From Gammaproteobacteria bacterium (GTDB taxonomy: Bacteria; Pseudomonadota; Gammaproteobacteria; Steroidobacterales; Steroidobacteraceae), in assembly GCA_028870355.1 (NCBI GenBank), contig JAGWPU010000075.1:2350-66349 (forward strand): a DNA stretch of 64,000 nucleotides. Direction: 5' to 3'. The position numbers and the translations under genes are program-made. The notes below the pieces were generated by a model. That model made no database searches. It saw nothing but the letters and a program-made list of their open reading frames with translations, and was not told the DNA's origin. Position 1 is the first letter of the stretch; each line of letters begins with the position of its first letter. Positions 5,623 to 64,000 of the stretch are shown piece by piece.

Positions 5623-8328
5623 TTGAACAGCAGAATGAAGCTCGGTCTCGCGATCGCGGCGATCCTCGGCGGCAGCACGGTGAACGCCTTTGCCGCGACC
5701 GATCCGGGCCCGTCCGAGCGCACTGCGGCGGCTTCGGATTCCGTGTCGAGCTCCGCGCTCCAGGAAGTCGTCGTGACCGCGCAACGTCGCGCGCAATCGG
5801 TCCAGGACGTGCCGATCACGATTCAGGCGATCACCGGTGCGCAGCTCAACCAACTCAGCGTGACGACCTTCGACGACGTGCTGAAATATCTGCCGAACGT
5901 GACCTTCGGGTCGAACGGGCCGGGCCAGGGCAGCATCTTCATGCGCGGGATGAGCGCGGGCTTCGCGGGCAACCAGTCGAGCGCGACTTTCGCCTCGTTT
6001 CCGAACGTCGCGACCTACCTCGACGACCAGTCGCTGCAGTTCCCGGCGCGCAATCTCGACGTCTACCTGGTGGACATGCAGCGCATCGAGGTGCTCGAGG
6101 GTCCGCAGGGCACGCTGTTCGGCGGCGGTGCCGAAGCCGGTGCGATTCGCTACATCACGAACAAGCCGGTGCTCGACCGGACCGAGGGCGTGACCGAGGC
6201 GAGTTACGGCGTGACCGCGCACGGCGATCCGAACCACGCGCTGAGCGCGGTGCTGAACGCACCGTTGATCGCGCACAAGCTCGCGGCCCGCGTGGTGATC
6301 TACGACGATAGGCGCGGCGGCTACATCACCAACGTGCCGAGCACCTTCACGCGCAGCAACAACGATACCGGCAACTACTACGGCGGCGTTCGTCCGGGCG
6401 CGACCGGCTTGTGCCCGAACGGCTTGCCGACCCACACTGGCTTCTGCGTGCCGGCGTCGAACCAGATTGCGAACAACTACGCGATCGCGGGGCGCGCGTC
6501 GAATCCGGTCCAGTACGGCGGTGCCCGCGCGGAGCTGCTCTACCAGATCGACGACGACTGGAGCGCGTTGATCACGCAGAGCTACCAGGACATGGAAGCC
6601 GATGGCCTGTCGACGCAATATCCGATCGGCTCGGACGGGCAGACGCTCGGACCCTGGGAGGTCACTGCGTTCGTGCCGGCGGTGAACAAGGACCGCTTCG
6701 AGAACACCGCGTTCACGCTGAACGGCAAGCTCGGCGCGCTGCACGCCGTGTACACCGCCGGCTACCTCGTGCGTCACATCGACCAGACCAACGATTACTC
6801 GAACTACACGCGCAGCGCCTACGGCTTCTACTACACCTGCAGCGGCGGCTCGGGTTTCGGCTCCGGGACCCCGTCCTCGACGGTGCCGACCTGCTATTCC
6901 CCGATCACGTCCTGGCACGACCAGGTGAAGAACACCCACCTGAGCAACGAGTTCCGCCTCAGCACGCCGAGCAACTGGCGGACCCGCGGGATCGTCGGGC
7001 TGTTCTGGGAGGATTTCGAGATCTACGACAACATGAACTTCCTGTACAAGACGATTCCGTCGTGCACGCCGACGAACCTCGCGAACGCGCTCGCGGGCGG
7101 CTTGCCGTGCGTCGGTAACGTCGGCCCGCTGCCGGGCGCGTACGCGTCGGACCCGAGCGTGCGCAACGACAACGTCGCGTTCGGCGAGGACATTCGCCGC
7201 GGCTACAAACAGACCGCGGTGTTCGCGTCGATGGACTACGACATCGTCCCGAAGGTGCTGACGATCACCGGCGGTGCCCGCTACTACCGCTACAGCGAAG
7301 ACGAGGTGGGCTCGAAGTACACGTCCCCGCTCGCCTGCGCCGACGTCGCCAACGGTTGCTATGCGGGCACGACCAGCATCAATGCCGAACACGAGAACGC
7401 GGTCTACACGGGCGTCAAGGGCCGCGCGAACATCACCTGGCACGTGACCCCGGACATCATGGTCTACTACACGTTCTCGCAGGGATTTCGCCCGGGCGGC
7501 TTCAACCGTACCGTCGCGAACAAGGCGAAGGATGCGAATGGCGTGCCGCAATACTCCTCGCCGCTCAGCTACAAGCCCGACTCGCTGACCAACAATGAGA
7601 TCGGCTGGAAGGCCGAGGTATTCGGCCATCACCTCCTGCTGAACGGCTCGTTCTATCGGATGGACTGGAACGACGTGCAGTTCGCGCTATTCGATCCGAC
7701 GATCCTCGGCAACACCACCTTCGTCGTGAACGGCCCGAACTACCGGATCGACGGCTTCGAACTGCAATTCGTCGCGAAACTCCCCGGCGGATTCACGCTG
7801 CAGGGATCGGGCTCCTGGAACAGCGCGAACCAGTCCTCGTCGCCCTGCCTGATCGACAATTACGCGAGCTCGTCCGGGGTGAAGTCGCCGAATTTCGGCC
7901 AATGCATCACCGAGGTCAAAGGGTCCCCGTTCCCGAACCCGTTCGGCGCGCTGAACACCCGTCCCGCGTTCTCGCCGCCGCAGGAGTTCAACCTCCGCGT
8001 GCGCTACGACTGGGACTACGAGGCGTATCGGGGCTTCGTGATGATCGGTGCGAACCACATCGGACACATGACCAACGAGCCGGCGAGCTTCGTGAACGGC
8101 GATACGGTGCAGGTTCCGTACACGACCTGGCTGAAGTACGATCAGCCGGGGTACACGACCTACGACGGCTCGGTCGGCATCGCGAAGGGCGCCTGGACCG
8201 CGCAGGTGTACGGACAGAACCTGTCCAATTCGGACGCGAGTTTGTTCACCTCCTCGTCCCAGTTCATCAAGTCCGAGGTCCCCCTGCGGCCCCGGGTGAT
8301 CGGCGTCAAGATCGGTTACCGCTTCTGA
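5623..8328 (+). CDS. TonB-dependent outer-membrane receptor (pair 1)
   Basis: ORF 5497..8328. SD AGGGAG lies 6 nt before TTG 5623; ATG 5635 is an alternative start. Signal peptide ends STVNAFA. Plug motifs VVVTAQRRAQSVQDVPI, RIEVLEGPQGTLFGGG and IRYITNKP. C-terminal beta-signal KIGYRF-stop. Confidence 0.9.
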   Translation: MNSRMKLGLAIAAILGGSTVNAFAATDPGPSERTAAASDSVSSSALQEVVVTAQRRAQSVQDVPITIQAITGAQLNQLSVTTFDDVLKYLPNVTFGSNGPGQGSIFMRGMSAGFAGNQSSATFASFPNVATYLDDQSLQFPARNLDVYLVDMQRIEVLEGPQGTLFGGGAEAGAIRYITNKPVLDRTEGVTEASYGVTAHGDPNHALSAVLNAPLIAHKLAARVVIYDDRRGGYITNVPSTFTRSNNDTGNYYGGVRPGATGLCPNGLPTHTGFCVPASNQIANNYAIAGRASNPVQYGGARAELLYQIDDDWSALITQSYQDMEADGLSTQYPIGSDGQTLGPWEVTAFVPAVNKDRFENTAFTLNGKLGALHAVYTAGYLVRHIDQTNDYSNYTRSAYGFYYTCSGGSGFGSGTPSSTVPTCYSPITSWHDQVKNTHLSNEFRLSTPSNWRTRGIVGLFWEDFEIYDNMNFLYKTIPSCTPTNLANALAGGLPCVGNVGPLPGAYASDPSVRNDNVAFGEDIRRGYKQTAVFASMDYDIVPKVLTITGGARYYRYSEDEVGSKYTSPLACADVANGCYAGTTSINAEHENAVYTGVKGRANITWHVTPDIMVYYTFSQGFRPGGFNRTVANKAKDANGVPQYSSPLSYKPDSLTNNEIGWKAEVFGHHLLLNGSFYRMDWNDVQFALFDPTILGNTTFVVNGPNYRIDGFELQFVAKLPGGFTLQGSGSWNSANQSSSPCLIDNYASSSGVKSPNFGQCITEVKGSPFPNPFGALNTRPAFSPPQEFNLRVRYDWDYEAYRGFVMIGANHIGHMTNEPASFVNGDTVQVPYTTWLKYDQPGYTTYDGSVGIAKGAWTAQVYGQNLSNSDASLFTSSSQFIKSEVPLRPRVIGVKIGYRF

Positions 8329-8366
8329 ACACCGGTCCCGGCAACCCGATCACTTCGGCTAGAATC

Positions 8367-8392
8367 GGCGGCGGGCCTCCCGGCCCGCCGCC
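8367..8392 (+). terminator. GC-rich stem-loop GGCGGCGGGCC-tccc-GGCCCGCCGCC between TBDR1 and sulfotransferase 1 (possible partial terminator or mRNA-stability element)
   Basis: Perfect 11-bp inverted repeat with a 4-nt loop, read directly. There is no U-tract after it. Confidence 0.35.
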
Positions 8393-8410
8393 TGCCGCTT
8401 GCGGAGTCGC

Positions 8411-10459
8411 ATGATGTCAGCCGCCGCCGAACCCGCCCTGTCGCCCCCGGAGGAACCGCGGGTCGAGCGTGAAGTGCGGCGCATCCGCGACCTCACCCGG
8501 GGTGGCGAGCACGCGCGAGCGCTGCGGGCTGCCGAAGCCCTCGCGGCGACGGTTCCCGAGAATCGCGACGTGCTGTATGCACTCGCATTCAGCCAGCGGC
8601 ACCTGCAGGACACCGCCGCCGCGCTCGCGACGCTCGAGCGGCTCGAACGCGTGCATCCGCACTTCAGTCGCCTGCACGAAGAACGCGGACTGTGCTACGT
8701 GGCGCTGCGGGATGCGCCGCGCGCGATCGCCTCTTTGCTGCAGGCGGTCAACCTGAACCCAGCGCTCCCCAACAGCTGGGCGATGCTCGAGAAGCTCTGG
8801 CGGATCGGCGGCGATCGCGCGAGCGCCGACACGGCGGCGGAACACGTCGCCACCCTGGGTCGCCTCGCGCCGGAGGTGGTGCGCGCGACCTCGCTGTTCG
8901 CCGATCGAGACCTCGGTCCGGCGGAAGCCCTGGTGCGCGCGCGCCTGCGACACCAGGGTGACGACGTCGAGGCGATGCGCCTGCTCGCGCGGATCGGCAT
9001 CGCGCGTCATGTCCTCGACGACGCCGAACTGTTGCTCGAGGCCGTGCTCGACCTCGCGCCCACGTATCGTGCGGCCCGCCACGATCATGCGTTCGTGCTG
9101 GTCGAGCGCCACAAGTACCGCGAGGCACGCGCGCAACTCGAGCGCCTGCTGGCGGAGGACCCACGGCATCGCGGCTACCGCGCGCTGTTCGCGGCCACCT
9201 GCGTCGGGCTCGGCGAGCAGGCTCGCGCGATCGACCTGTACCGCGAACTGCTCGGGGAGACGCCCCAATCGGCCGACCTGCTGCTCTCGCTCGCCCATGT
9301 GCTGAAGACCGTCGGGGATCGCGACGCGGCGGTCGCGGCCTACCGCGCCGCCGCGGCGGCGCGCCCGGAATTTGGCGACGCCTACTGGAGCCTTGCGAAT
9401 CTCAAGACGTATCGATTCGAGGAGGGCGAGGTCGTGCGCATGCGCACGCTCGAGGCCCGGGTCGACCTCGGCGCCGACGATCGGATCCATCTGTGTTTCG
9501 CGCTCGGCAAAGCGCTCGAGGATCGTGCGAACCATGCCGACTCCTGGCGCTACTACGAGCGCGGCAACGCGCTGAAGCGCGCCACGAGCGGATACCGCCC
9601 CGAGGTGATCGAGAGCAATACCCGGGGCCAGATCGCGGTGTGTACGCGCGAATTCTTCACGGCCCGCGCCGGATGGGGTGCGGGCGACCGCTCGCCGATC
9701 TTCATCGTCGGTCTGCCGCGGTCCGGTTCGACCTTGATCGAGCAGATCCTCGCATCGCATTCCGCGGTCGAGGGGACCGAGGAGCTCGCCGACGTCCACC
9801 GGATCGTGCTCGAACTGCAGGGCCGGGAGCCGAACCCCGACGACCCGCGCTACCCCCGCGTGCTCTCCACGATGACCGCGGCCGAGTTCCGCCGACTCGG
9901 CGAGCGCTACCTGACCGACACCCTACCGTACCGTACCGGCCGGCCGCACTTCATCGACAAGATGCCGAACAACTTCCGTCACATCGGCCTGATCCACCTC
10001 ATGCTGCCGAACGCGAAGGTCATCGATGCGCGGCGCGAGCCGATGGCCTGTTGCTTCGGCAATCTCAAGCAGTTGTTCGCGAACGGGCAGGAATTCAGCT
10101 ATTCGATCGACGACATCGCGCGCTACTATCGCACCTACCTGGAACTGATGCGCCACTGGGACGCGGTGCTGCCGGGCAAGGTCCTGCGCGTACTGCACGA
10201 AGAGGTGGTCGAGGATCTCGAGGGCAGTGCGCGGCGCATCCTCGATTTCTGCGAATTGCCGTTCGAGACGGCGTGCCTCGAGTTCTACCGGAGCGGACGC
10301 AGCGTACGGACGCCGAGTGCCGAGCAGGTTCGAAGGCCGATCTACCGCGATGGCTTGAATCAATGGAAGCACTACGAACCGTGGCTCGACGCCCTGCGCG
10401 ATGCGCTCGGAGACGCGCTGACCCGGTATCGCGAACCCGTCGCCGGACATCCCCTGTGA
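8411..10459 (+). CDS. TPR-repeat protein with C-terminal PAPS-type sulfotransferase domain (pair 1)
   Basis: ORF 8399..10459. GGAG lies 4 nt before ATG 8411. The N-terminal ~400 aa are TPR-like helical repeats. The C-terminal domain has GLPRSGSTL (5'-PSB loop), IDKMPNNF, IDARREPMACCF (3'-PB-like RRxP) and VRTPSAEQVRRPIY. No signal peptide. Confidence 0.85.
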   Translation: MMSAAAEPALSPPEEPRVEREVRRIRDLTRGGEHARALRAAEALAATVPENRDVLYALAFSQRHLQDTAAALATLERLERVHPHFSRLHEERGLCYVALRDAPRAIASLLQAVNLNPALPNSWAMLEKLWRIGGDRASADTAAEHVATLGRLAPEVVRATSLFADRDLGPAEALVRARLRHQGDDVEAMRLLARIGIARHVLDDAELLLEAVLDLAPTYRAARHDHAFVLVERHKYREARAQLERLLAEDPRHRGYRALFAATCVGLGEQARAIDLYRELLGETPQSADLLLSLAHVLKTVGDRDAAVAAYRAAAAARPEFGDAYWSLANLKTYRFEEGEVVRMRTLEARVDLGADDRIHLCFALGKALEDRANHADSWRYYERGNALKRATSGYRPEVIESNTRGQIAVCTREFFTARAGWGAGDRSPIFIVGLPRSGSTLIEQILASHSAVEGTEELADVHRIVLELQGREPNPDDPRYPRVLSTMTAAEFRRLGERYLTDTLPYRTGRPHFIDKMPNNFRHIGLIHLMLPNAKVIDARREPMACCFGNLKQLFANGQEFSYSIDDIARYYRTYLELMRHWDAVLPGKVLRVLHEEVVEDLEGSARRILDFCELPFETACLEFYRSGRSVRTPSAEQVRRPIYRDGLNQWKHYEPWLDALRDALGDALTRYREPVAGHPL

Positions 10460-10479: not shown

Positions 10480-11283
10480 GTGAATCTCGCACACCATTTC
10501 GACCTCGTGATCTTCGATTGGGCCGGAACGACCGTGGATTTCGGCTGCCGCGCACCGGTCGACGCGCTGCTGGAGGCGTTCCGGCAGCACGGCGTCGCCC
10601 TGACCGAACCCCAGGTCCGCCGCGACATGGGCAAGGCGAAGGCCGACCACGTGCGCGCGCTGCTCGGGGAGCCCGAAGTCGCCGCCGCGTGGACCGCGGC
10701 GAACGGCGCGCCGGCGAGCGCCGCCGACTGCGATGCCCTGGTACGCGAACTCGGCCCACTGATGCGCGAGCGCGCGGGTCGAACGGCGACGCTGATCGAC
10801 GGCATGGTGGAGACGGCCGCGGCGCTGCGCGCGGCGGGGCTGCGGATCGCCTCGTCGACCGGCTACACGCGCGAGATGATGGCGCCGGTGCTCGAACGCG
10901 CCGCGGCGCAAGGGTACGCTCCCGAGCACCTGGTGTGTTCCGGAGAGACGCCGCAGGGACGGCCGAGCCCGCTGATGATCTACAAGGCCTGCGCCGAACT
11001 CGGCGTCTGGCCGCTGAGTCGCGTCGTCAAGGTCGACGATTCCGAGGCGGGCGTCGCCGAAGGCGATGCCGCCGGCTGCCTGAGCGTCGGTGTCGCGGCA
11101 TCCGGGAACGGGGTCGGTCTCGCGGCGCCGGTCCTCGAGGGATTGCCGGCCGTCGAACGACGCGCCCGGATCGACGCGGCGGCCCGCGCGCTCTATGCGG
11201 CCGGTGCCGACATCGTGATCGACACGGTCGCCGACCTGGTGCCGGCGATCGAACGGCATCTTCGCATCGGCCGAGGTCGCTGA
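10480..11283 (+). CDS. phnX: Phosphonoacetaldehyde hydrolase (phosphonatase)
   Basis: 267 aa from GTG 10480, with GAGGA 10 nt upstream. An alternative GTG at 10456 overlaps the sulfotransferase stop as GTGA. HAD motif I is [14 protein letters not shown], followed by SSTGYTR and [12 protein letters not shown]. The overall layout matches PhnX as I recall it. Confidence 0.85.
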
Positions 11284-11285
11284 GC

Positions 11286-12395: not shown

Positions 12396-13432
12396 CGGCC
12401 GCGCGGACGATCCGGGCGAGACTCGTGATCGCGCTGCTGCTCTGCGGCCTCGCGGCCGCAGCCGGCAGTCGGGCCGCGGTCGTCACGGTCTACAGTGCCG
12501 ATGGGCTGCGCGACGGCCGGCCGAACTGGTTCGGCACGATGTTCGCGGCATTCGAGCGGCGCACCGGGATCACGGTGCAGTACGTCGAGGCGGGCTCCGG
12601 CGTGATCGTGAACCGCATGCTCGCCGAGCGCGCGGCGCCACAGGCCGACGTGCTGGTCACGATCCCACCGTTCATGCAGGTCGCGGCCGACGCTGGCGCC
12701 CTGCGGCCGCTGATCCTGGCGCCGGCGGACAGTGCCGCGCTCGGCGCTCCCCACGCGCCGGCGCTCTGGTATCCGCTCGCGGACGACTACTCGGCGTGGA
12801 TCTACGACGCAGCGGCGCTACCCGCGCCACCGGCGAGCTTGGCGGCGCTGCTCGCACCGACGTTCCGCAATCGACTTCAATACTCGACGCCTGGACAGGC
12901 CGGCGACGGCACGGCGGTGTTGCTGCAGGCGTTCGAGGCCTTCGGCAGCCAGCGCGCGGGCCTCGCTTACCTGAGACGCTTGCAGGCGAACAACCTCGGG
13001 CCCTCCGCCTCGACCGGCCGCCTCGCTGCGCTCGTCGACAAGGGCGAGATCTGGGTCGCCAATGGCGACGTGCAGATGAGCTACTCCCAGCAGCGTGAAT
13101 ACCCGAACCTGAGGCTGTTCTTTCCCGCGGGCCCGGACGGTCGTCGGCTCGCCGTGCGGCTGCCGTACCAGATCGCGCTCGTCCGCGGCGCGCCGCACGA
13201 ACACGCTGCGCTGCAATTGATCGCGTTCTTGCTGAGCCGGCCGGCGCAGGCGCGGCTCTACGACCTTGCGCGTGCGTTCCCGGCGCGCCACGATGTCCCG
13301 CCGACCACGCCGGCCGCGCACGCGCTCGAGCACGTGATCGACGGCGTCCGAATCTGGCAGCCCGACTGGACCCGTGTCGCGAAACGGCTCGGACACGACG
13401 TCGCGCTCTGGCGCCAAGCGACCGAACGGTGA
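12392..13432 (+). CDS. phnS: 2-aminoethylphosphonate ABC transporter substrate-binding protein
   Basis: 346 aa with a signal peptide. [42 protein letters not shown] and [16 protein letters not shown] closely resemble Salmonella PhnS as recalled. ATGA overlap with phnW. Confidence 0.85.
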
Positions 13433-13436
13433 ACGG

Positions 13437-36710: not shown

Positions 36711-39338
36711 TCAGAACTTCTGACCGAACTTGAGCTCGTAGGTCCGCGGCTGCATCGGCATGATGTACGGCTGGTTGCAGGTCACCGGCGTACAGGCCGC
36801 GAACGTCCCGAGCTGCGCATGCGTGTCGAACGCATTCGAGATCGTGAAGTCCACGTGCAGATTGTCGCGGGTGAATCCGGCCGAGAGGTTCACGATGCTG
36901 TACGGCGGCAGCTCGCTCAGGTGCTGCTGGCCGTTCGGCCCCGGCGTATAGAACACCGGATACAGCAACGGCACCGACGCATCCTGATAGAGGTAGGCCG
37001 CCTGGCCGTAGCCGTTCCACTTCCCGAACGGGAAGTTGTAGCGCGCGACCAGGTTCGCCTTCACCCGCGGAACGACCGGCAGGCGGTCTCCGGCCGACGC
37101 GAGCGGTCCGGTCGTCACCGTGCCGTCCGCGTACGGGCCGTTCACTTGGTTCGGACAACTGGTCTCGAGCTGGGTCTGGCTTCCCGGAACCAGGGTGCCG
37201 CAGAAATTCTGCGTGAGCTTCGCGTCGAGGAACGTCGCGCTGGTGCTGAAGAACCAGCCGTGCCCGGCGAGCCACTCGGCGTCGGTCTCGATGCCCTTGA
37301 TCTGCGCGGAGGCCGCGTTCTGCACGACGGTCACGCTGTTCGGCCCGAGGAACGAGAACTGGAAGTTGTTCCAATCCTCGAGGTAGGCCGCCCCGTTCCA
37401 CCGCAAGGTGTTGCCCAGCCACTGGGTCTTCCAGCCGAACTCGTAGTTCGTCAGCGTATCGGGCTGATACGGCGGGTAGATCGCGTGGATCGCCGCATCG
37501 TAGACGCGGTTCGCGCCACCGGGACGATAGCCGGTCGAATACGTGAAGTAGACCAGGTGGTTCGTGTCGAACTTGTAGGTCAGCGTCGCCCGCCAGGTAT
37601 GACCGCTCCCCGACGTGCCCGCGTTGAGGTCCGTGCACGGGGCGAAATGGAACGGCGCATAGCTCGTGCTCGGCGTACCGCCGACCGGCCCGCAGGCCAG
37701 CATGCCCGAATGGTATCCGGTATTCGCCTGATAGGCGGCCGAATAGCCGTAAAAGCCTTGCAACGAATTGTCGTACCGGTAGAACCGCACACCGTCGGTC
37801 GTCGACCAGTGCTTGGTGATGTCCCAGGTCGCCTGGCCGAAGATCGCCTGGTCGCGGTCGACCCGCTCCTCGTCGGTCAACCAGATCGTGTTGTTCTGCA
37901 GCCCCGGCATCGACAGGCTCTGCGCGAGACCCTGCGTGTTGTACGCGTACGGATTGCCGTTCAGGCCCGGCACCACGTAGTCCTGCCAGATCTCGTGCAC
38001 CTGCCGCTCCGCGAACACGCCGACCGTGCCGTGAACCGGCAGGTCTTGCGGCGTCGAGACCCGCAACTCGTTGCTCCACTTGGTGAAATGGCCGCGATTG
38101 ATCGTGAATTCCTGCGGCATGACCGGCTGGTTGGCGTTGTTGACCCAGTAGTGACCCGACCCATAGTACTTGTCGTAGAAATACGAGTAGTCGGAGTAAT
38201 CGGCGATCGAGTGCTGGTTGCGCGCGAACCACCCCCCCGCATAGGTGATGTCGAAATCATGCACCTTGCCCTCGATCGTCAAGGTGCTCAACGAGAACGA
38301 ATCCTGGGTGTTCTCCGGACCGAAATGCGTGACCTTGAGGTACCCCACCGCGGGGTCGTAGCTGAAGAAGCCGTTCGCGCCCATCGTCTGGCCCATCACC
38401 ATCGGGGTCACGGTCCAGTCGTCGCCGATCTTGAAGCGCATCGTCGCCCGGCCGCCCTTGGTGCCGACCGTGTTGTAGTCGCTGTTGACGGACGATTGAT
38501 TGCTCAGGGTCTGCCCGGTCGCTCCGGTCCAGGTCCGGAAACTACGCTGACCGTTCACGATGCCGGCGTTGACGTTCGTGCCGGCGACATTGCTGATGAA
38601 GCCGGGGTCGTGTTCGTCCCAGCCGACCAGGCGCACGGCCGCGGTATCCGACAACGGCAGGTTCACGTAGCCTTCCGCCTCCCAGCCGACACCGCCGTGG
38701 TAGATCGAGGTGACGCCGACGTCGTAGGACCCGGAGAACTTCGAGGGATCCGGTTTGTTGGTGATGATGCGGATCGTGCCGGCCTCGGAACTCGATCCGT
38801 ACAGGGTCCCCTGCGGGCCCTCCAGCACCTCGATGCGGGCGATGTCGTACATATGCAGATCGACGGTGCCGTCGATCGTCGTGACCGGCATCTCATCGAG
38901 GTAGGTCGCGACGCTCGGCTGCGAGGCCGAGTGGTTGCCGTCCTGGCCGCTGACCACGCCACGCATGTACACGTGCGTCGCGCCGATGCCGTTGCCGCCC
39001 TGGCCGATGCTCTTCACCTCGGTCACGCCCGGCAGGTACGCGACGTAGTCGTCGAGGTTCACGATGTTGAGCTGCTGCAACCTCTTCGTGCCGATCGCCT
39101 CCATGCTGATCGGAATGCTCTGCATGTTCTCGGCGACCTTGGTCGCGGTCACGATCACCGCACGCAGCGTATCGGTCGTATCGCTCGCTGCGGCCTGTGC
39201 GTGAACGGCAACCGGCGCCGCCCCGGCGAGGATCGCGGAGATCGCGGTCGCGAGCGGCAACACCCGTCCGCCGCGGACGCGGGGTGCTCCGTCACGACGC
39301 CATCCGCCCAACGGTCCTGGTTCTCTTCGGTTTCTCAC
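36711..39338 (-). CDS. TonB-dependent outer-membrane receptor (pair 2)
   Basis: Full ORF, 875 aa. Signal peptide ends PVAVHAQAA. VIVTATKVAENMQSIPIS, RIEVLEGPQGTLYGSS and IRIITNKP. Ends KFGQKF-stop. The ATG overlaps the sulfotransferase stop (ATGA). Confidence 0.9.
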   Translation of the reverse strand: MRNRREPGPLGGWRRDGAPRVRGGRVLPLATAISAILAGAAPVAVHAQAAASDTTDTLRAVIVTATKVAENMQSIPISMEAIGTKRLQQLNIVNLDDYVAYLPGVTEVKSIGQGGNGIGATHVYMRGVVSGQDGNHSASQPSVATYLDEMPVTTIDGTVDLHMYDIARIEVLEGPQGTLYGSSSEAGTIRIITNKPDPSKFSGSYDVGVTSIYHGGVGWEAEGYVNLPLSDTAAVRLVGWDEHDPGFISNVAGTNVNAGIVNGQRSFRTWTGATGQTLSNQSSVNSDYNTVGTKGGRATMRFKIGDDWTVTPMVMGQTMGANGFFSYDPAVGYLKVTHFGPENTQDSFSLSTLTIEGKVHDFDITYAGGWFARNQHSIADYSDYSYFYDKYYGSGHYWVNNANQPVMPQEFTINRGHFTKWSNELRVSTPQDLPVHGTVGVFAERQVHEIWQDYVVPGLNGNPYAYNTQGLAQSLSMPGLQNNTIWLTDEERVDRDQAIFGQATWDITKHWSTTDGVRFYRYDNSLQGFYGYSAAYQANTGYHSGMLACGPVGGTPSTSYAPFHFAPCTDLNAGTSGSGHTWRATLTYKFDTNHLVYFTYSTGYRPGGANRVYDAAIHAIYPPYQPDTLTNYEFGWKTQWLGNTLRWNGAAYLEDWNNFQFSFLGPNSVTVVQNAASAQIKGIETDAEWLAGHGWFFSTSATFLDAKLTQNFCGTLVPGSQTQLETSCPNQVNGPYADGTVTTGPLASAGDRLPVVPRVKANLVARYNFPFGKWNGYGQAAYLYQDASVPLLYPVFYTPGPNGQQHLSELPPYSIVNLSAGFTRDNLHVDFTISNAFDTHAQLGTFAACTPVTCNQPYIMPMQPRTYELKFGQKF

Positions 39339-41401
39339 TGTTCTCTCCCCTGGTCGTCAGTTGCAAATGGGTAGGTCGGATTCGCGGCGACTGCCTCGCC
39401 CAGCGCGGCGCGCAAGGGCTCGAGCCCGAATTCGTAGCGGCGCCAGCGATCGACGCCGTCGCGATTGATCGGCCGGCGCACCTGCTCGGAGCTCGCGGTG
39501 CGCACCGGACGAGCGTTCTCGTGGAAGCGCAGGCAGGCTGCCTCGAACGGCAGGCCGCAAAATTCGAGGAGGCGGCGCACTTCGCGCTCGGTGTCCGAGA
39601 TCATGCGCTCGTAGATCACCCGGTGCACGCGCCCCGGCAACACGGCGTCGACGTGCGCCATCCACTCGACGTAGTCCCGGTAGTAGCGGCCGATGTCCTC
39701 GAGCGAGTACGCGAAGCTCTGGCCGCGCGCGAAGTGCTGCGTGAAGATCGACGTGCCGCAGTCGAGCGGATGGCGGCGCGCGTCGATGATCTTCGCGTTC
39801 GGCAACGTGAGCTGGATCAGGCCGACGTAGAACCAGTTGTTCGGCATCTTGTCGACGAAGAACGGGGCGTTGGTGCGCCGCTGCACCCGGACCGATGCCA
39901 GATACCGCTCGCCGAGTTCGCGCGCCTGCGCCTCCGTCAGGCGCTCGAGCGCCTGCGCGAACCCCCCCGTCTCCGCATCCGCTGACGACGCCGTCACGAG
40001 TTCGTTCGCGAGCCGCGGCAGATCGGGCAGTTCCATCGTGCCCTCGACCAGCGAGTGGCTCGAGAGGATCTGCTCGACCAGGGTCGAACCCGACCGTGGC
40101 AATCCGACGATGAAGATCGGATCGGCTGCGGGGGCGCCCCAGCCCCGGCGGACCTCGAAGAACGCGCGGGTCTGCACCGCGATCGAGCGCGCGACGAAGC
40201 GGGACGTGTCGTCGGCGAAGTAGGGATGCAGCTTCTTGCGCTGCGCGTTGCCCGCCACGAAGTGCGCGAACGCCTCGGTGAAATCGCCGGCGTCCTCGAG
40301 CGCCTTGCCGAGCGCGAATTCGACGTGCAAGCGATCCTCGTCGGCGAGATCCGCGCGGTCGAGCGCCGCACGCATCGCGGCGATGTCCGCAGCGGCGAAC
40401 CGGAAGGTCTTCAGGTTCGCGAGACTCCAATAGGCCTCGCCGAACGTCGGCGCGAGTGCGATCGCGCGGCGATACGCCCTGACGCCCTCCTCGAAACGAC
40501 CCGTGGTCCTGAGCGCGTGGCCGTAGCTCGCCCAGATCTTCGGCTGCCGCGGGAACTCGGCGAGTACGCCGCCGTAGATCGCGATCGTCCGCTCGAAGTC
40601 CCCGAGATTCGCGAAAGTCGCCGCCTGCAGGTTGCGGTAGGACGGATTGCGGGGGTCACGTTCGAGGAGACGCTCGATCTCGGGCAAGGCGTCCGCACCG
40701 CGTCCTTGCCGATTCAGCAAGACCGCCCGTTGGTACCGGGCCGCGTCGAAGCTCGGCGCGAGTTCGAGACAGCGCACGAGCAGGGACTCCGCGTCGGCGA
40801 AGCGGCGCAGTCGTGCGGCGACCTCCGCGAGCATGCGCAGCGCCGCGACATCGGTCGGCTGTGCGCCGAGGTGCTCCCGAAGGACCGCGTCCGCGCGCGG
40901 CAGGTCGTTTGCGATCAGCGCATCGGCGGCCGCGCGCAGACGCGGATCGCGCGTCGCCGCTTTCACCGCCCGAACGCGGGCCTCGTCGGCCTCGGCCGCG
41001 TCGCCGCGCAGATCGTGTTGATCGGCGAGCAGCCGCCACGCATCCGGCGAATCCGGCGCGATCCCGAGCGCGTGCCGCAGACTCGCGATCGCCTCGTCCA
41101 CGTGGCCAGCCGCCGACCGCGCGGCCGCGAGTTCGAGGTGCACGCGTGCCGCGGCCGGTTGCTCCTTCGCGAGCGGTTCGAGGATCGCGAGGGCCGCCTC
41201 GGTGCGTCCCGCACGCCGGTGCGCGGCCCCCTGGATCACCCGTGCCTGAGGATGCCCGGGATACGCGCGAATCACTTCGTCGGCCTGACGCAGCGCGAGG
41301 TCCGGATCACGGTCGAGCAGCCGCACCGCGTGCGTCAGGGCGACGTCCGCGGTCGCGACCGGCGTGCCGCCGGCCTGATTCAGATCCGATTGCGCTGCCA
41401 C
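39335..41401 (-). CDS. TPR-repeat protein with C-terminal PAPS-type sulfotransferase domain (pair 2)
   Basis: Full ORF, 688 aa, GTG start. Same architecture as 8411..10459: GLPRSGSTLVEQILSSHS, VDKMPNNW, IDARRHPLDCGTS and VRTASSEQVRRPIN. Confidence 0.85.
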   Translation of the reverse strand: MAAQSDLNQAGGTPVATADVALTHAVRLLDRDPDLALRQADEVIRAYPGHPQARVIQGAAHRRAGRTEAALAILEPLAKEQPAAARVHLELAAARSAAGHVDEAIASLRHALGIAPDSPDAWRLLADQHDLRGDAAEADEARVRAVKAATRDPRLRAAADALIANDLPRADAVLREHLGAQPTDVAALRMLAEVAARLRRFADAESLLVRCLELAPSFDAARYQRAVLLNRQGRGADALPEIERLLERDPRNPSYRNLQAATFANLGDFERTIAIYGGVLAEFPRQPKIWASYGHALRTTGRFEEGVRAYRRAIALAPTFGEAYWSLANLKTFRFAAADIAAMRAALDRADLADEDRLHVEFALGKALEDAGDFTEAFAHFVAGNAQRKKLHPYFADDTSRFVARSIAVQTRAFFEVRRGWGAPAADPIFIVGLPRSGSTLVEQILSSHSLVEGTMELPDLPRLANELVTASSADAETGGFAQALERLTEAQARELGERYLASVRVQRRTNAPFFVDKMPNNWFYVGLIQLTLPNAKIIDARRHPLDCGTSIFTQHFARGQSFAYSLEDIGRYYRDYVEWMAHVDAVLPGRVHRVIYERMISDTEREVRRLLEFCGLPFEAACLRFHENARPVRTASSEQVRRPINRDGVDRWRRYEFGLEPLRAALGEAVAANPTYPFATDDQGREQ

Positions 41402-59992: not shown

Positions 59993-62506
59993 TCACTCGC
60001 CACCGGGAGCACCACCCCAGCGGTAGCTCACGCGCAGTCCGAACACGCGGGGCTCGTTGCGAGTCTGACGCAGGTCGAAATTCCCCTCGTTCGTGTAGAT
60101 CACCGCGTTCTTGTTGGTGAGATTCGTGATGTAGAACTCGGTCAGCCAATGCGAGTGCGTCTGCTGCAGGCCGATGCGCAGGTTCATGATCGAGTAGCCC
60201 GGCTGCAGTACGCGCGGCAGCCCGTTGCTGCCCGAAGTCTGCAGGTCGTTCCACATGTCGCCCTTGTGCGAGAGGTCGTACTGCACGTACCAGTGCAGCG
60301 GCCCGCCACCCGGGAGCGGCCGTTCGTAACGCGCATTCGCGCTGTAGCTGAAGTACGGATCGTACGGCAGGCGCTCGCCGGGCGTGACAGCGAAGCTCGC
60401 GTTCTGGAAGTTGTTGGTCTGCATCCGCGCGTCGTTGTAGCTCGCCGACGCGCCGAGGCTCAGGAACCGCGTGACGTTGTAATTGACGTTCGTCTCCATG
60501 CCGTAGACGCGCGCGTTGCCGACGTTCGCATTGAAGCTGCTGGACGGGCACAGCGAGGGGTCGAACACGCTCGTCTGGAGCTGCTTCCACGGCATGTAAT
60601 AGACCGCGCCGTTCCACAGCAAGTGATTCTCGAGCCAGGTCGTCTTCCAGCCGAGCTCGTAGTTCGTCAGCGTGTCCGGGACGTACCGCGGCGGCACGCC
60701 CGCCTTGTAACAGGCCGTCGGTATGCCGCCGTTGACGCCGCCGTCGCGGAATCCCTGCGCCGCATCCGCGTAGACCATCGCACTCTTCGTCAGCTGATAG
60801 CTGATCCCGACCTTGCTGTCCCACTTGCTTCCGGTCCCGCCCCCGTACGCGCTCGGCGACTGCGGCGCGTACCAGAAGCCGCCATAGGTCGACGTGAAGA
60901 AATGCGAGTGGAAATGCACGGTCCCCGCCTCGACGCGCAGCTTCGGCGTGATTTCGAAGCTCACGTCGAGGTACTCGGTCGTCTGCAGATAATCGGTCCG
61001 GGTGTCGTAGCTGTACCAGTCGTCGGGCTTCGGCGGCACCGCGCCCTGGTTGTAGTAATACGCGGTGATCGCCTGCCACGCCTGGCCCGAGGTCTGCAGG
61101 CCCGGCATGTGATAGTAATTCGAGACCATGTTCTTGGTCTTCTCCCAGTACGCGCCGACCATCCAGTGGAAGCGCCCGCCGGGTTTCGATTGCAGCCGCA
61201 ACTCGTCCGACCACCGATAGGTGTTGTCGCGATAATCGTAGTACTGGATCGGCGGGTTGCAGCCACTGAAGCCGTTCGCACCACCGCTGTTGATCGGGTC
61301 GGTCAGGCAGGTGTACGCCTGCTGGGTCGAGGCGTTGAAGTACGCGTCCGGCGGGTTTGCGTACTGGTTCAAGTACTGCATGTACTCGGAGTACTCGTTC
61401 ACCCAGCGGTCGTTCTGTGCCCAGTAGGTGCTCGCGAACACGAGATCCCCGATCCCGACGTCGCCGTCGAGATGGAAATCCGCCATCTTCGCGTAGTACT
61501 GCTTGAATTCCGGACCGAAGCGCACGACCGTGTTCGGCGGCAGCGGGCGCGCCGGCCCGTCGACGAGTGCGCCCAGGTAGTTCACCGCGCTGCCGATCGT
61601 CGGATCCTCGTCCCAGGCGCCATGCGTGAGTTGTCGCTGATACCCGTAGGTCAGCGTCGCCTTCCAGCCGTCCGCGATCTTCTGGCCGAACGCGATCCGC
61701 CCGCCGGTCACCCGCTCGACGTTGTAGTTCTTGCCCGCCCAGGCCGCGTTGTTCGACACCGAGCCGTTCACCCAGGTCCGGGTCGTCAGTTGATTGGTGA
61801 TGAAGCCGCCGTGGTAGACGCTGAACGCGGACAGCCGGATCGCCGACCACCCGTCGACGATCGGCAGGTTCACGAATCCCTCGACCGTGCCGTTGTGGGT
61901 CCCGCCGTCGATCTTCCCGCCGTCGAGGTCGATGCCGGCGCCGAAGGCGTTCGGGTTCGGCTTGTTCGTGATGAAACGGATCGCGCCCGCCATCGCGCCG
62001 GCGCCGAACGTCGTGCCTTGCGGTCCGTTCAGCACCTCGATCCGCTGGATGTCGTACAGATGCAGATCGGGCGTCGTTCCGTAGTAGTTCATCGACATGT
62101 CGTCGACGAGATATCCGGTCGTCGCCTCGTTCGCATAGTTCGGGTTGCTGCCGTCCGAGACGCCGCGCATCACGAAGGTCTGCGTACCGGGGCCCGCGCT
62201 CACGAACGAGATCGACGGCGTGCGGCTCGCGTAGTCCTCGAACTGCGCGATCGCGAGATTCTTCAGATCCTTGCCGGTGAACACGTCGATGCTGATCGGC
62301 ACCTTCTGCAGATTCTCGGCGCGTTTTTGCGCGGTCACGACGATTTCCTGCAGCGTCGAACTCCCATCCGCCAGCGAGGCCGCGTGCACCGCGGTCGCCG
62401 GGATCGCTGCGCCACCGGACAACGCGGCGGCGATCGCGAGTGCGAGCTTCGGATAGGACCGGACCGTCGTCGCGGATCGAATTTCGCGCGTTCGCATCGT
62501 TTTCAT
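59993..62506 (-). CDS. TonB-dependent outer-membrane receptor (pair 3)
   Basis: ORF 59993..62557. The start is taken at Met18 (MKTMRTREIR); Met21 at 62497 and Met1 at 62557 are alternatives. EIVVTAQKRAENLQKVPIS, RIEVLNGPQGTTFGAG and IRFITNKP. The C-terminus is RVSYRW followed by the seven extra residues GGAPGGE. Confidence 0.85.
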   Translation of the reverse strand: MKTMRTREIRSATTVRSYPKLALAIAAALSGGAAIPATAVHAASLADGSSTLQEIVVTAQKRAENLQKVPISIDVFTGKDLKNLAIAQFEDYASRTPSISFVSAGPGTQTFVMRGVSDGSNPNYANEATTGYLVDDMSMNYYGTTPDLHLYDIQRIEVLNGPQGTTFGAGAMAGAIRFITNKPNPNAFGAGIDLDGGKIDGGTHNGTVEGFVNLPIVDGWSAIRLSAFSVYHGGFITNQLTTRTWVNGSVSNNAAWAGKNYNVERVTGGRIAFGQKIADGWKATLTYGYQRQLTHGAWDEDPTIGSAVNYLGALVDGPARPLPPNTVVRFGPEFKQYYAKMADFHLDGDVGIGDLVFASTYWAQNDRWVNEYSEYMQYLNQYANPPDAYFNASTQQAYTCLTDPINSGGANGFSGCNPPIQYYDYRDNTYRWSDELRLQSKPGGRFHWMVGAYWEKTKNMVSNYYHMPGLQTSGQAWQAITAYYYNQGAVPPKPDDWYSYDTRTDYLQTTEYLDVSFEITPKLRVEAGTVHFHSHFFTSTYGGFWYAPQSPSAYGGGTGSKWDSKVGISYQLTKSAMVYADAAQGFRDGGVNGGIPTACYKAGVPPRYVPDTLTNYELGWKTTWLENHLLWNGAVYYMPWKQLQTSVFDPSLCPSSSFNANVGNARVYGMETNVNYNVTRFLSLGASASYNDARMQTNNFQNASFAVTPGERLPYDPYFSYSANARYERPLPGGGPLHWYVQYDLSHKGDMWNDLQTSGSNGLPRVLQPGYSIMNLRIGLQQTHSHWLTEFYITNLTNKNAVIYTNEGNFDLRQTRNEPRVFGLRVSYRWGGAPGGE

Positions 62507-62577
62507 CCCCTGCTCGTTGTTCGCCCGGCGACTCGCACCGGTCGCTGATCGGGCCATGCTCCTACCCTTCGCGGCGG

Positions 62578-62585
62578 CTTGTCAA
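62578..62585 (-). promoter_or_regulatory. TTGACAAG (perfect -35 hexamer) about 74 nt upstream of TBDR3
   Basis: Read on the minus strand in the sulfotransferase 3 / TBDR3 gap. No convincing -10 was found. The same octamer occurs at 41477..41484. Confidence 0.2.
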
Positions 62586-62672
62586 TGTCGGGCGGTATCG
62601 GTGTGCGCCTGCCGGCCTTGTGCGCTAATCGCACACTCGCTCGTCGACACGCGCGCGGCGAACGCCGCCGGA

Positions 62673-64000
62673 TCATTCCTCGCGATCGAAGCGCTCGAGG
62701 CCATCGCCGAGTGCGCGTCGCAGCGGGTCGAGCGCAAACTCGAAGTGCTTCCAGTACCCGACGCCGGAGGCGTACAAGGGCTGCCGAACCTGCTCGGCGC
62801 TCGCCGTGCGCACCGCACGCTTCGTCTCGTGGAACTCGAGACACGCGGGCTCGAACTCGAGACCGCAGTGCGCGAGCAGTCGACGGATCTGTCGCTCCGG
62901 GTCCCGCACCAGATGCTCGTAGCGCAGATGCAGGACCTTCCCCGGCAGCACCGCGTCCCAGTGGTCCATCAATTCGAGGTAGCAACGGTAATACCGCCCG
63001 AGATCCTCGAGGTCGTAACTGAAGCTCTGCCCTTCGGCGAAGTGCTGCTTGAAGGTGCTGAAGCACGCGTCCATCGGATGCCGGCGCACGTCGATGATCG
63101 TTGCCTGCGGCAGCATGCAGTGGATGAGCCCCGCGTGGCTGAAGTTGTTCGGCATCTTGTCGATGAACCGCGGCCGGCCGCTGCGCAACGGCCGCGTCTC
63201 CTCGACGTAGCGCCGGCCGAGTTCCGCGAAACGCTCGCGCGGGACCGAACGCAGGACCTCGGGGTAGGCGTCGTGCGCGGCGTCGGCGTGGTCGAACTCG
63301 CGCACGATCGCGAGCACGTTCGGCAGCTCGAACGTCCCTTCGACGGCCGAATGACTCGCGAGGATCTGCTCGACGAGCGTCGAGCCGGAACGCGGCAGGC
63401 CGACGACGAAGATCGGCGCCGGGTCCTCGTACCCCGCGCCGGCGCGCTCGGCAAGGAACGCGGCATCGAAGCACTCGCGTACCCGGCGCGTCTTCCCCTC
63501 GAACACCCGGATGTCGTACGCGATCGTCTGGCGCCGCCGGCGATTGCCGGCGGCATAGTGCTCGAACGCGCTCGGGTAGTCCCGCCGGTGCTCGAACGCC
63601 CGTCCGAGCGCGAACCGCAGGTGCGCCTGATCGACGTCGTCGCCATCGTCCCGGATCAGCGCCTGCATCGACGCGATCTCGGCATCGCTGAACACGTAGG
63701 TCTTGAGGTCCGCGAGCGCCCAGTACACCTCGCCCATCGCCGGCGCCCGCGCGAGGCATTCGCGGTACGCCGCCTCGCACGCCTGCCGATTCCCCAGGGT
63801 CTTGTGCAGGTGCCCGATCGACAGCCGCAGGCGCACCTCGCCGGGATTCAGGCGTGCCGCCTCCTCGAACGCGGCGAGCGCCTCGGGCTGGCGCATCATC
63901 CGCGTGTACACGTTGCCGAGCTGCACCCAGTTCTTCGGATTCTCCGGTTCGATCAACAGCAGGCGCCGGAGCGAGCGTTCGGCGTCGCCCAGGCGTCCGA
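62673..64000 (-). CDS. TPR-repeat protein with C-terminal PAPS-type sulfotransferase domain (pair 3), N-terminus outside window
   Basis: The ORF track starts at TTG 63956, but the frame stays open to nt 64000 and still reads TPR-like sequence (GRLGDAERSLRRLLL-IEPENPKNW). GLPRSGSTLVEQILASHS, IDKMPNNF, IDVRRHPMDACFS and VRTASAEQVRQPLY. Confidence 0.85.
   Translation of the reverse strand, partial: GRLGDAERSLRRLLLIEPENPKNWVQLGNVYTRMMRQPEALAAFEEAARLNPGEVRLRLSIGHLHKTLGNRQACEAAYRECLARAPAMGEVYWALADLKTYVFSDAEIASMQALIRDDGDDVDQAHLRFALGRAFEHRRDYPSAFEHYAAGNRRRRQTIAYDIRVFEGKTRRVRECFDAAFLAERAGAGYEDPAPIFVVGLPRSGSTLVEQILASHSAVEGTFELPNVLAIVREFDHADAAHDAYPEVLRSVPRERFAELGRRYVEETRPLRSGRPRFIDKMPNNFSHAGLIHCMLPQATIIDVRRHPMDACFSTFKQHFAEGQSFSYDLEDLGRYYRCYLELMDHWDAVLPGKVLHLRYEHLVRDPERQIRRLLAHCGLEFEPACLEFHETKRAVRTASAEQVRQPLYASGVGYWKHFEFALDPLRRALGDGLERFDREE

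Follow-up and report, generated by a model that had tools for sequence, protein, structure and literature searches.

A conserved and co-evolving gene pair of a TonB-dependent receptor and a TPR-sulfotransferase in soil bacteria

The 64,000-nucleotide stretch of gammaproteobacterial DNA analysed here (the window) contains three genes for TonB-dependent receptors (TBDR) and three for proteins that join TPR repeats to a Sulfotransfer_3 domain (ST), every TBDR gene being the same-strand neighbour of an ST gene. A first-pass annotation had proposed these three pairs, and all six genes were confirmed at their places. A profile search of the window found just these three TBDRs and three STs; since all of them are paired, the arrangement is not a matter of chance. 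Pfam assigns Plug and TonB_dep_Rec_b-barrel domains to each receptor, and Sulfotransfer_3 (E 1e-47 to 1e-50) with TPR repeats to ST1, ST2 and ST3, which bears out the shared architecture initially described. The motifs reported for the enzymes (GLPRSGSTL, DKMPNN, RRxPxD..S and VRTxSxEQVRxPI) and for the receptors (RIEVLxGPQGT, ITNKP and GWK) are also present. As first suggested, the STs have no signal peptide: a hydrophobic leader is absent from the visible N-termini (ST1 and ST2) and from ST homologues elsewhere.

Pair 1 lies on the plus strand, with TBDR1 (5497..8328, the longest open reading frame) ahead of ST1 (8411..10459, 682 aa), a predicted cytoplasmic PAPS sulfotransferase resembling tyrosylprotein sulfotransferases (TPST). 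The likely signal peptide of TBDR1, MKLGLAIAAILGGSTVNAFA, begins at 5635, and the start annotated earlier was 5623. TBDR1 carries the TonB-box-like sequence LQEVVVTAQ, and its orthologues at surveyed loci L001, L023 and L002 are 69-77% identical to it, with an ST next after each. The hairpin noted in the 82-nt gap of this pair is a perfect 11-bp G+C stem with a UCCC loop and no U-run (8367..8392, plus strand; folding z = -2.7), just past the TBDR1 stop. At other loci 23 of 34 TBDR-to-ST gaps fold with z < -2 (median -2.73), and the gap within pairs is typically short (median ~60 nt).

Pairs 2 and 3 lie on the minus strand in the order ST, TBDR. TBDR2 (36711..39338) is immediately downstream of ST2 (39335..41401, 688 aa), an order that recurs in the orthologous pairs L002 and L160. 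The start/stop overlap described at this junction does not read ATGA but GTGA (39335..39338, minus strand), where the stop of ST2 would share bases with a candidate GTG start of TBDR2 that has a Shine-Dalgarno-like GGGGAGAG upstream; the overlap itself is uncertain, since in a public annotation of identical sequence TBDR2 begins 72 nt past the ST2 stop (850 aa). In pair 3, the end of the window cuts ST3 (62673..>64000), so that only its C-terminal 441 aa are visible. Downstream lies TBDR3 (59993..62557, likely start ATG 62506), whose C-terminus, ...YRWGGAPGGE, runs 7 residues beyond the usual terminal aromatic.

The three copies are old, diverged paralogues, as had been supposed: pairs 1 and 2 are each closer to orthologous pairs elsewhere than to each other. 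ST1, ST2 and ST3 share 44-48% identity overall, with 33-37% in TPR plus linker and 54-59% in the catalytic domains, a measured value within the half to two-thirds estimated by eye. The receptors are 32-33% identical. A DNA comparison of the copies within the window found no long repeats linking them, only similarity of 72-80% confined to conserved coding motifs, and the scanned window ORFs gave no match to transposase or integrase domains, in agreement with the original reading that no mobile element connects the pairs.

Alignment and structural model both suggest a competent ST enzyme. Aligned to TPST1/2, it retains all residues that bind PAPS or take part in catalysis in human tyrosylprotein sulfotransferase, namely the 5'-PSB loop, the catalytic Glu, Lys, the 3'-PB Arg...Ser and Ser, and the pocket also appears intact in a confident AlphaFold model of ST2 (AF2 pLDDT 87, pTM 0.81). 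The model predicts a TPR superhelix like that of OGT/SPINDLY, enzymes that hold protein substrates by their TPRs, followed by a TPST-like domain (Foldseek: OGT/SPY TPR and TPST2). Protein-tyrosine sulfotransferases are the best match of the catalytic domain among solved structures; the match is weak (E about 1e-6, 18% identity in the PDB), and almost as good a match is the ST of CurM, whose substrate is a polyketide intermediate bound to an acyl carrier protein. Pro takes the place of TPST2 Arg101, the residue that recognises an acidic neighbour of the target tyrosine.

The pairing is conserved well outside the source genome. A TBDR of the same subfamily lies within 700 bp of 48 of the 66 evaluable ST homologues from other genomes and of 69 of 95 overall, on the same strand in 66 of the 69 adjacent pairs; reciprocally, an ST lies within 1 kb of 28 of the 48 metagenomic TBDR homologues that could be evaluated. 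The TBDR subfamily makes up 43.5% of ST-adjacent genes versus 1.1% of the remaining genes of those loci (odds ratio 68, p = 3e-39), although these loci come mostly from one family, Steroidobacteraceae, and the counts are not phylogenetically independent. Pairs remain adjacent at identities as low as 28% (TBDR) and 37% (ST), and despite changed gene order and complete neighbour turnover. Immediate adjacency kept through paralogue expansion is typical of physically interacting proteins such as SusC/SusD-type pairs, a principle reportedly set out by Dandekar and colleagues in 1998.

ST and TBDR also diverge together. Their distances correlate tightly (r = 0.82, reached by 0 of 2000 Mantel permutations), so the pairs have duplicated and diverged as units, which is the co-duplication that the first-pass annotation had wished to see examined, and in 33 of 58 pairs the nearest relative of the ST carries the nearest relative of the TBDR. 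TBDR divergence tracks the TPR domain (partial r 0.60) and not the catalytic domain (partial r 0.08); this may reflect only similar evolutionary rates of TPR domain and receptor. Across ST homologues mean identity is 68% in the catalytic domain and 49% in the TPR part, and the enzyme looks like a fixed chemistry joined to a recognition arm that varies. The same synteny is found both with and without the ST, which marks the ST as a dispensable accessory. TBDRs 75-87% identical to paired ones occur without an ST in such synteny; any sulfation of the receptor thus cannot be essential to it.

Taken by itself, this dispensability, like the narrow phylogenetic range of the loci, would suit an adjacency left behind by past segmental duplication, or one of use for co-regulation only. 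We consider such an absence of direct coupling highly improbable, given the strength of the enrichment and the persistence of the pairing at low identity despite reordering and new neighbours. Many soil bacteria carry the TBDR-ST unit, whose two genes are conserved together and co-evolve. Each pair is very probably a co-transcribed unit of a one-subfamily TBDR and a cytoplasmic PAPS-dependent O-sulfotransferase, its TPST-like domain placed behind about ten TPR repeats, which is inherited, duplicated and diverging whole, moves between unrelated neighbourhoods and uses the enzyme as an optional accessory of the receptor.

At the surveyed loci the TBDR is the sole conserved partner of the ST, and no inner-membrane transporter or biosynthetic gene is common to them. 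Surrounding genes vary even between orthologous pairs, which extends the earlier remark that each pair has different cargo. The cargo first called phosphonate catabolism does comprise phosphonate genes, more exactly genes for 2-aminoethylphosphonate transamination and uptake (PhnW, PhnS, PhnT-like and PhnV). Beside the ST, in the window as at L002, L006 and L009 and at Caulobacter loci, lie either PhnX and a TIGR03364 oxidoreductase or PhnW/PhnS. Many loci have betA (807 bits, above cut-off), betB and a GbdR-like regulator around the pair, in catabolic islands laid out as gbdR-like > TBDR > [ST] > <betA <betB; other catabolic neighbours are sugar-acid dehydratase and dehydrogenase genes, a HAL-like lyase and, in the window, a P450. 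STs that lack a neighbouring TBDR recurrently lie beside a gene for a different exported protein, phosphocholine-specific phospholipase C (PLC; TIGR03396, 747 bits), which adjoins the ST in 12 loci.

Such islands speak for the main rival to a protein acceptor, in which a compound imported by the TBDR reaches the cytoplasm and the partner ST O-sulfates it or an oxygenated derivative; each pair could then be tuned to one ligand, which sulfation could trap, detoxify, store or activate. An operon of a transporter and an enzyme is by default read in this way, co-divergence is consistent with matched specificities, and the dispensable ST with a metabolic branch that is itself optional. Enzymes for small molecules can have different substrates even at the level of similarity seen among the STs, as human SULT1A isoforms do. 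However, no inner-membrane transporter accompanies the pair, some 400 aa of conserved TPR have no obvious role for a small acceptor, and conservation is highest in the catalytic domain though the contexts imply chemically unrelated cargo. To our knowledge, characterised bacterial PAPS sulfotransferases are biosynthetic, not catabolic. We regard cargo sulfation as less likely than not, and as only slightly less probable than a protein acceptor.

The PLC, bet and Phn neighbours would also suit an ST acting on a common small alcohol that arises as polar-lipid headgroups turn over, such as choline (giving choline-O-sulfate) or a hydroxy-aminophosphonate; the TBDR would be part of the same regulon for scavenging phosphorus or choline. 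For many pairs, among them window pairs 2 and 3, the context lacks such genes, the themes may stem from only a few orthologous groups, and the TPR domain, one-to-one pairing and TBDR co-divergence are left unexplained; this link is improbable. Similarly doubtful is a scheme in which the ST sulfates a secreted peptide or siderophore-like compound that the cognate TBDR re-imports, as in MbnS/MbnT. Sulfotransferase and TonB-dependent transporter genes do occur together in some methanobactin operons (PMC3621798), and siderophore-like products were proposed for other TonB-receptor-linked clusters of modifying enzymes (PMC2938197). Against it, the conserved neighbours of the pairs include no precursor peptide, NRPS/PKS, MbnB/C-like gene or exporter, the short gaps leave little room for a peptide gene, and the window yielded no riboswitch or other known RNA.

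The evidence leans towards the third hypothesis of the first-pass annotation, that the TPR domain targets the receptor precursor or another protein. We tentatively suggest, at less than even confidence, that the ST modifies a polypeptide which its TPR arm holds, in the simplest case the not yet exported precursor of the partner receptor. The OGT-like superhelix would bind an extended polypeptide and feed it to the sulfotransferase domain, and a hydroxyl side chain of the TBDR precursor would be sulfated in the cytoplasm before Sec export, this being the sole compartment that both gene products would ever share. The stem-loop after the receptor gene may hold the enzyme at a lower, catalytic level. 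What we infer in this mechanism is that the acceptor is a protein, that this protein is the receptor and that it is modified ahead of export. In its favour count conserved adjacency with the TBDR as sole partner, co-divergence that follows the TPR domain, the TPST-like and OGT/SPINDLY-like folds, the exported PLC where the TBDR is missing, and a hydroxylase-sulfotransferase fusion that accompanies extra Asp/Asn beta-hydroxylase-family genes at Caulobacter loci. Precedent comes from Aah-AIDA-I, TibC-TibA and HMW1C-HMW1, where a cytoplasmic enzyme is encoded beside the outer-membrane protein that it modifies before export.

Several observations count against a receptor acceptor: the closely related unpaired TBDRs, the Arg101-to-Pro change, the weak TPST match and the closeness of CurM ST. 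No TBDR residue was found that separates paired from unpaired receptors; receptors without an ST keep all the conserved tyrosines, those of the DYxNY and YY motifs among them, to the same degree, and Tyr/Phe differences were rejected as a pairing signature, being clade effects. One dedicated enzyme per receptor is an expensive arrangement, and we know of no sulfated bacterial outer-membrane protein. In line with the earlier statement that the pairing has no established function, a full-text literature search found none published for the fused family or for its pairing with a TBDR.

Among known systems, human TPST1/2 are the closest solved-structure relatives of the catalytic domain (Foldseek match TPST2, 3ap3), sharing the GxPRSG(S/T)TL form of the 5'-PSB loop and the use of PAPS in a compartment where it is available; they are Golgi membrane proteins without TPRs, whereas the STs are predicted to be cytoplasmic. 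RaxST of Xanthomonas oryzae is a bacterial tyrosylprotein sulfotransferase that goes with the peptide RaxX and a type I secretion system rather than with a TBDR. O-GlcNAc transferase and SPINDLY, the top structural matches of the ST TPR, likewise place a long N-terminal superhelix before a transferase, and the lumen of the ST superhelix is a putative substrate-binding site; their catalytic domain is GT41 and their donor a nucleotide sugar, in place of sulfotransferase and PAPS. The three glycosylation systems named above resemble the pair, by analogy only, in dedicating an adjacent cytoplasmic enzyme to each exported protein, but they do not sulfate, and their substrates are autotransporters or two-partner-secretion adhesins rather than TBDRs. 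MbnS and MbnT are also encoded in one operon (PMC3621798), yet MbnS, of family PF00685, has no TPR, the operon centres on the MbnA precursor and MbnB/C, absent beside the window pairs, and the methanobactin TBDR imports a finished sulfated product. Iyer et al. (2010) described cytoplasmic modifying enzymes repeatedly placed beside TonB-type receptors in alpha- and gamma-proteobacteria, in clusters of tryptophan halogenase, SapC, JmjC/2OG dioxygenases and sometimes sulfotransferases (PMC2938197). The window ORFs scanned hold no halogenase, SapC or JmjC domains, and the TPR-sulfotransferase/TBDR pair is absent from that paper, whose proposal was biosynthesis of a siderophore-like compound. A resemblance lies in the Caulobacter loci that join TBDR, beta-hydroxylases and sulfotransferases, a combination of enzymes that Iyer et al. 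predicted to hydroxylate and then sulfate proteins (PMC2938197).

TonB-dependent receptors (TBDRs) are the chief route by which soil and aquatic Proteobacteria take up nutrients with high affinity. Among bacterial chemistries, sulfation is rare and has been little explored. In the window, which has a G+C content of about 69% and looks like ordinary chromosome, the first-pass annotation had described three TBDRs, each adjoining on the same strand one enzyme (ST) composed of tetratricopeptide repeats (TPR) followed by a sulfotransferase domain, and this arrangement holds in full. In pair 1, TBDR1 (5497-8328, forward strand) precedes ST1 (8411-10459, forward). The order is reversed in the other two pairs, both on the reverse strand, with ST2 (39335-41401) ahead of TBDR2 (36711-39338) and ST3 (62673 to beyond 64000, cut by the window end) ahead of TBDR3 (59993-62557). 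The ATGA overlap reported at the junction of pair 2 reads GTGA in the actual sequence, and the use of GTG as a start there is uncertain. A profile search of the window found no TBDR or ST besides these six genes.

All three receptors match the Pfam families Plug and TonB_dep_Rec_b-barrel, and hydrophobic leaders and TonB-box-like (L/I)xx(V/I)(V/I)VTA segments are visible in each translation. From sequence they are identified as TonB-dependent receptors, with Plug, barrel, predicted signal peptide and a TonB-box-like N-terminal strand. No NCBIfam equivalog reaches its cut-off for the receptors, whose scores fall far below every siderophore, haem and B12 cut-off, nor for the STs, and an Rfam search upstream of the window receptors returned no riboswitch or other RNA family that would name a ligand. 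The AlphaFold model of TBDR1, built from an alignment of the three window receptors only, has a pLDDT of 30. Outer-membrane barrels normally finish with an aromatic residue; TBDR1 and TBDR2 end in F, and TBDR3 ends in ...SYRWGGAPGGE (59993-60020, reverse strand), seven residues past the usual final aromatic.

The three STs carry Sulfotransfer_3 (PF13469) matches with E values of 1e-47 to 1e-50, and the residues expected of a sulfotransferase are in place. The motif GLPRSGSTL, invariant in the three STs and 50 homologues, aligns with GVPRSGTTL of human TPST1, the 5'-phosphosulfate-binding loop GxPRSG(S/T)TL. Equally invariant in the 50 homologues are RRxPxxxxxS, which aligns with the 3'-phosphate-binding Arg and Ser of TPST (R183/S191), the Glu of EGTxEL, which aligns with the catalytic E99/E100, the Lys of DKMPNN (K158) and the Ser of S(S/A)EQV (S285). 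Human TPST1 and TPST2 are the best solved relatives of the catalytic domain (E about 1e-6), with CurM ST close behind. In the AlphaFold2 model of ST2 (50-sequence alignment; pLDDT 87, pTM 0.81), residues 16-328 form about ten TPRs, built of 19 paired helices; a helical linker follows, and after it the alpha/beta domain. In Foldseek its C-terminal part matches TPST2 (3ap3_B) with a TM score of 0.63 on the target, and the TPR domains of OGT and SPINDLY are the top Foldseek and PDB matches of its TPR part. Judged by catalytic residues and modelled fold, the ST is a predicted PAPS-dependent sulfotransferase of the Sulfotransfer_3/TPST-like class. The position of TPST2 Arg101, which reads the acidic residue beside the target Tyr, is a nearly invariant Pro in the STs, so the enzyme is not classed as a TPST, though it may still work like one. 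Unlike the receptors, the STs have visible N-termini that are not hydrophobic and should therefore be cytoplasmic; the cytoplasm is the site of PAPS synthesis.

The ST belongs to a very large family. More than 7,900 close database relatives were found, the best ones from Steroidobacteraceae metagenome-assembled genomes and the closest labelled by NCBI as 'tetratricopeptide repeat-containing sulfotransferase family protein'. A HMMER search over 1.84 billion cluster representatives gave 13,197 family clusters (50% identity) at E < 1e-30; this is an upper bound, because the TPR repeats alone may account for some of the matches. Its long members include single polypeptides with a tandem (TPR-ST)x2 (the database protein P0122 and others), extra TPRs and one glycosyltransferase fusion; none of them joins the ST with a TBDR or a substrate-like domain.

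The pairing is conserved well outside the source genome, as two complementary surveys establish. In the ST-centred survey (79 loci on one-genome-per-species contigs, retrieved with the ST alignment), a TBDR of the same subfamily lies within 700 bp of the ST in 69 of 95 full-length homologues; 66 of these 69 pairs are on the same strand, with the TBDR upstream in 56 and downstream in 10. When only homologues outside the source genome whose flanks extend 2.5 kb or more in both directions are counted, 48/66 have an adjacent TBDR. Of the genes that adjoin an ST, 43.5% encode this receptor, as against 1.1% of the genes elsewhere in these loci (odds ratio 68, p = 3e-39). In the TBDR-centred survey (80 metagenome loci retrieved with the TBDR alignment), 28 of the 48 receptors that could be evaluated have an adjoining ST, which in every case shares their strand and in 27 lies downstream. 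Carriers of the ST turned up in Dyella, Caulobacter, Brevundimonas and Novosphingobium, among others. The counts are not phylogenetically independent, since most loci come from one bacterial family; the surveyed subset of the ST family is tied gene-for-gene to one receptor subfamily.

The two genes have also evolved together. The distances among STs and those among TBDRs, compared over 58 full-length pairs, have a correlation of r = 0.82, a value reached in 0/2000 Mantel permutations, and the nearest relative of the ST carries the nearest relative of the TBDR in 33 of the 58. Within the window the STs are 44-48% identical overall (catalytic domain 54-59%, TPR and linker 33-37%) and the receptors 32-33%. 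In the comparison of full-length pairs, pairs 1 and 2 are only 41% (ST) and 29% (TBDR) identical, and pair 1 has orthologous pairs in three surveyed loci (L001, L002 and L023; ST 67-69%, TBDR 69-77% identity) and pair 2 in one (L002), its lineage retaining the ST-first gene order. As orthologous pairs elsewhere are closer than pair 1 is to pair 2, the copies are old duplicates of the whole unit, in agreement with their earlier description as diverged paralogues. A mobile-element origin, of which the first-pass annotation had likewise seen no sign, is rejected: there are no long repeats and no transposase or integrase domain in the scanned window ORFs, and DNA likeness among the copies (72-80%) is restricted to conserved coding motifs. 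Functional coupling of the ST and TBDR genes is well supported, and it is very improbable that the two stand side by side with no direct coupling.

The estimated TBDR-to-ST gap in the surveyed loci has a median of about 60 nt, and typical gaps leave no room for a peptide gene. A stable stem-loop occupies 23/34 such gaps of other loci (folding z < -2; median z = -2.7), and the gap of pair 1 holds an 11-bp G+C stem (8367-8392). In most pairs these stem-loops are G+C-rich, have no U-run and lie just 3' of the receptor stop codon; a possible role is to dampen read-through from the receptor gene into the ST, or to shield the 3' end of the receptor mRNA. A second, more diverged TPR-ST often follows the first directly (as in loci L005, 9967-12156, and L079, 10003-12108; also L018, L020 and L046).

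Beyond the pair itself, no companion gene is constant across the surveyed loci. The differing cargo noted earlier for each window pair was borne out: the P450, PanE-like, DMFA2_C and S9 peptidase genes are without counterparts in all of the surveyed loci, even where the pair itself is orthologous. The DMFA2_C protein (N,N-dimethylformamidase beta-like; 41587-43221, reverse strand) is encoded just upstream of ST2. A 534-aa ORF (1787-3391, reverse) has a strong coding signal, matches nothing in Pfam, NCBIfam or the PDB and, like the DMFA2_C gene, is not conserved beside related pairs. A pair of U32 peptidase-family genes with an SCP2-domain gene behind them (48053-50714, reverse) has the arrangement of UbiV/UbiU/UbiT, which serve oxygen-independent ubiquinone synthesis; a further U32 gene lies at 21719-22780. 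The phosphonate genes reported after ST1 are present and can be named more exactly: PhnW, a PhnS binding protein, a PhnT-like ATPase and a PhnV permease (10518-16233, forward), a set for 2-aminoethylphosphonate handling. PhnW (2-aminoethylphosphonate-pyruvate transaminase) scores 573 bits against a cut-off of 296, and PhnX was not seen in the window. Elsewhere (L002, L006, L009 and the Caulobacter loci) the genes that flank the ST include PhnX and a TIGR03364 FAD oxidoreductase. In Caulobacter (L075, 3664-13568; also L063 and L076) a cluster that begins with a different TBDR continues with Sulfotransfer_2, an Asp/Asn beta-hydroxylase, the TPR-ST, a beta-hydroxylase-Sulfotransfer_3 fusion, the TIGR03364 oxidoreductase and PhnX; such a fusion implies that a single substrate is first hydroxylated and then sulfated.

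Besides the 2-aminoethylphosphonate genes, two further themes recur near the ST, a phospholipase C and choline oxidation, the latter with betA (807 bits, above cut-off) and betB. The order GbdR-like AraC/DJ-1 regulator, TBDR and, where present, ST, facing convergent betA and betB, is frequent (L004, L016, L019, L021, L033, L061 and others). The same synteny occurs with the ST (L119, L125, L142, L156) and without it (L143, L153, L114, L137), which suggests that one receptor lineage belongs to choline catabolism. Unpaired receptors share 75-87% identity with paired ones; given this and the synteny with and without the ST, the enzyme is a dispensable accessory of the receptor. Comparison of paired with unpaired receptors found no TBDR residue, in particular no Tyr versus Phe, specific to ST-paired receptors; apparent paired-specific Y/F columns vanish once unpaired receptors are set against their nearest paired relatives. 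In 12 loci without the window's TBDR subfamily beside the ST, the ST adjoins a phosphocholine-specific phospholipase C (TIGR03396, 747 bits), which in most cases is transcribed divergently, on contigs labelled as several phyla (L026, L027, L034, L039, L043, L047, L069, L073; in Caulobacter/Brevundimonas L063, L070, L075, L076). A headgroup or phosphate-starvation role, for example choline-O-sulfate formation, touches on these neighbours and seems improbable to us. A second alternative, that the ST sulfates cargo imported by the receptor, is how a transporter-enzyme operon would ordinarily be read; it agrees with the catabolic surroundings but leaves the TPR domain unexplained, as well as the missing inner-membrane transporter: neither such a transporter nor a biosynthetic gene is common to the surveyed loci. 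We regard cargo sulfation as possible but doubtful.

In the mechanism that we tentatively propose, the TPR arm would hold a polypeptide acceptor, most simply the precursor of the partner receptor, which would be sulfated ahead of export. This reading is favoured because the pair is the only conserved unit and its adjacency outlasts paralogue expansion, change of gene order and full turnover of neighbours; such persistent immediate adjacency is typical of physically interacting proteins. Moreover, an enzyme of the cytoplasm can share a compartment with an outer-membrane protein only while the latter has yet to be exported. The divergence of the receptors goes with that of the TPR domain (partial r 0.60) but hardly with that of the catalytic domain, which is well conserved (partial r 0.08); this too argues for the reading, although a rate artefact may lie behind the partial correlation. 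Precedents for an adjacent enzyme that modifies an exported protein exist in Aah-AIDA-I, TibC-TibA and HMW1C-HMW1, and by analogy the ST and its receptor may follow the same logic. Further reasons are the ST architecture, which copies that of OGT/SPINDLY, the alternative partner in other phyla, phospholipase C, which is also exported, and the earlier prediction that beta-hydroxylase and sulfotransferase combinations modify proteins (PMC2938197). Against this reading stand the dispensability of the ST, the absence of any receptor residue that correlates with ST presence and the weakness of the TPST similarity.

If the receptor is the acceptor, it would be the first sulfated bacterial outer-membrane protein, and bacteria would offer a parallel to the rule in eukaryotes by which exported proteins are marked by sulfation. 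A broader and doubtful extension is that a dedicated, TPR-guided, TPST-like enzyme encoded next to each of them O-sulfates TBDRs, and in other phyla a secreted phospholipase C, while these proteins are still in the cytoplasm awaiting export; protein sulfation would then be a widespread post-translational modification of bacterial surface proteins. If instead the cargo is the acceptor, the pairs would bring to light a sulfation step in nutrient or xenobiotic processing that is absent from current metabolic models. Whichever the acceptor, the pairs offer a clean, testable two-gene system.

A full-text literature search found no paper on the TPR-sulfotransferase family or its TonB-dependent-receptor link, in line with the first-pass annotation, which knew of no established function coupling such an enzyme to TonB-dependent uptake. 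The nearest earlier descriptions concern different systems. TonB-receptor-linked clusters described by Iyer et al. 2010 (PMC2938197) carry tryptophan halogenase, SapC and JmjC/2OG dioxygenase, none of which occurs in the scanned window ORFs; Asp/Asn beta-hydroxylase-family genes appear only in Caulobacter among the surveyed loci. Methanobactin operons with MbnS/MbnT have been surveyed (PMC3621798), and a comparable make-and-recapture role for the ST and TBDR is unlikely in our estimate; MbnA, MbnB and MbnC, the core of those operons, are absent from the window and the surveyed loci. With OGT/SPINDLY the ST has in common a long N-terminal TPR superhelix, but theirs is joined to a GT41 glycosyltransferase domain and that of the ST to a C-terminal Sulfotransfer_3 domain. 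TBDR and ST both come from known superfamilies, and the module that they form is a receptor-linked accessory enzyme.
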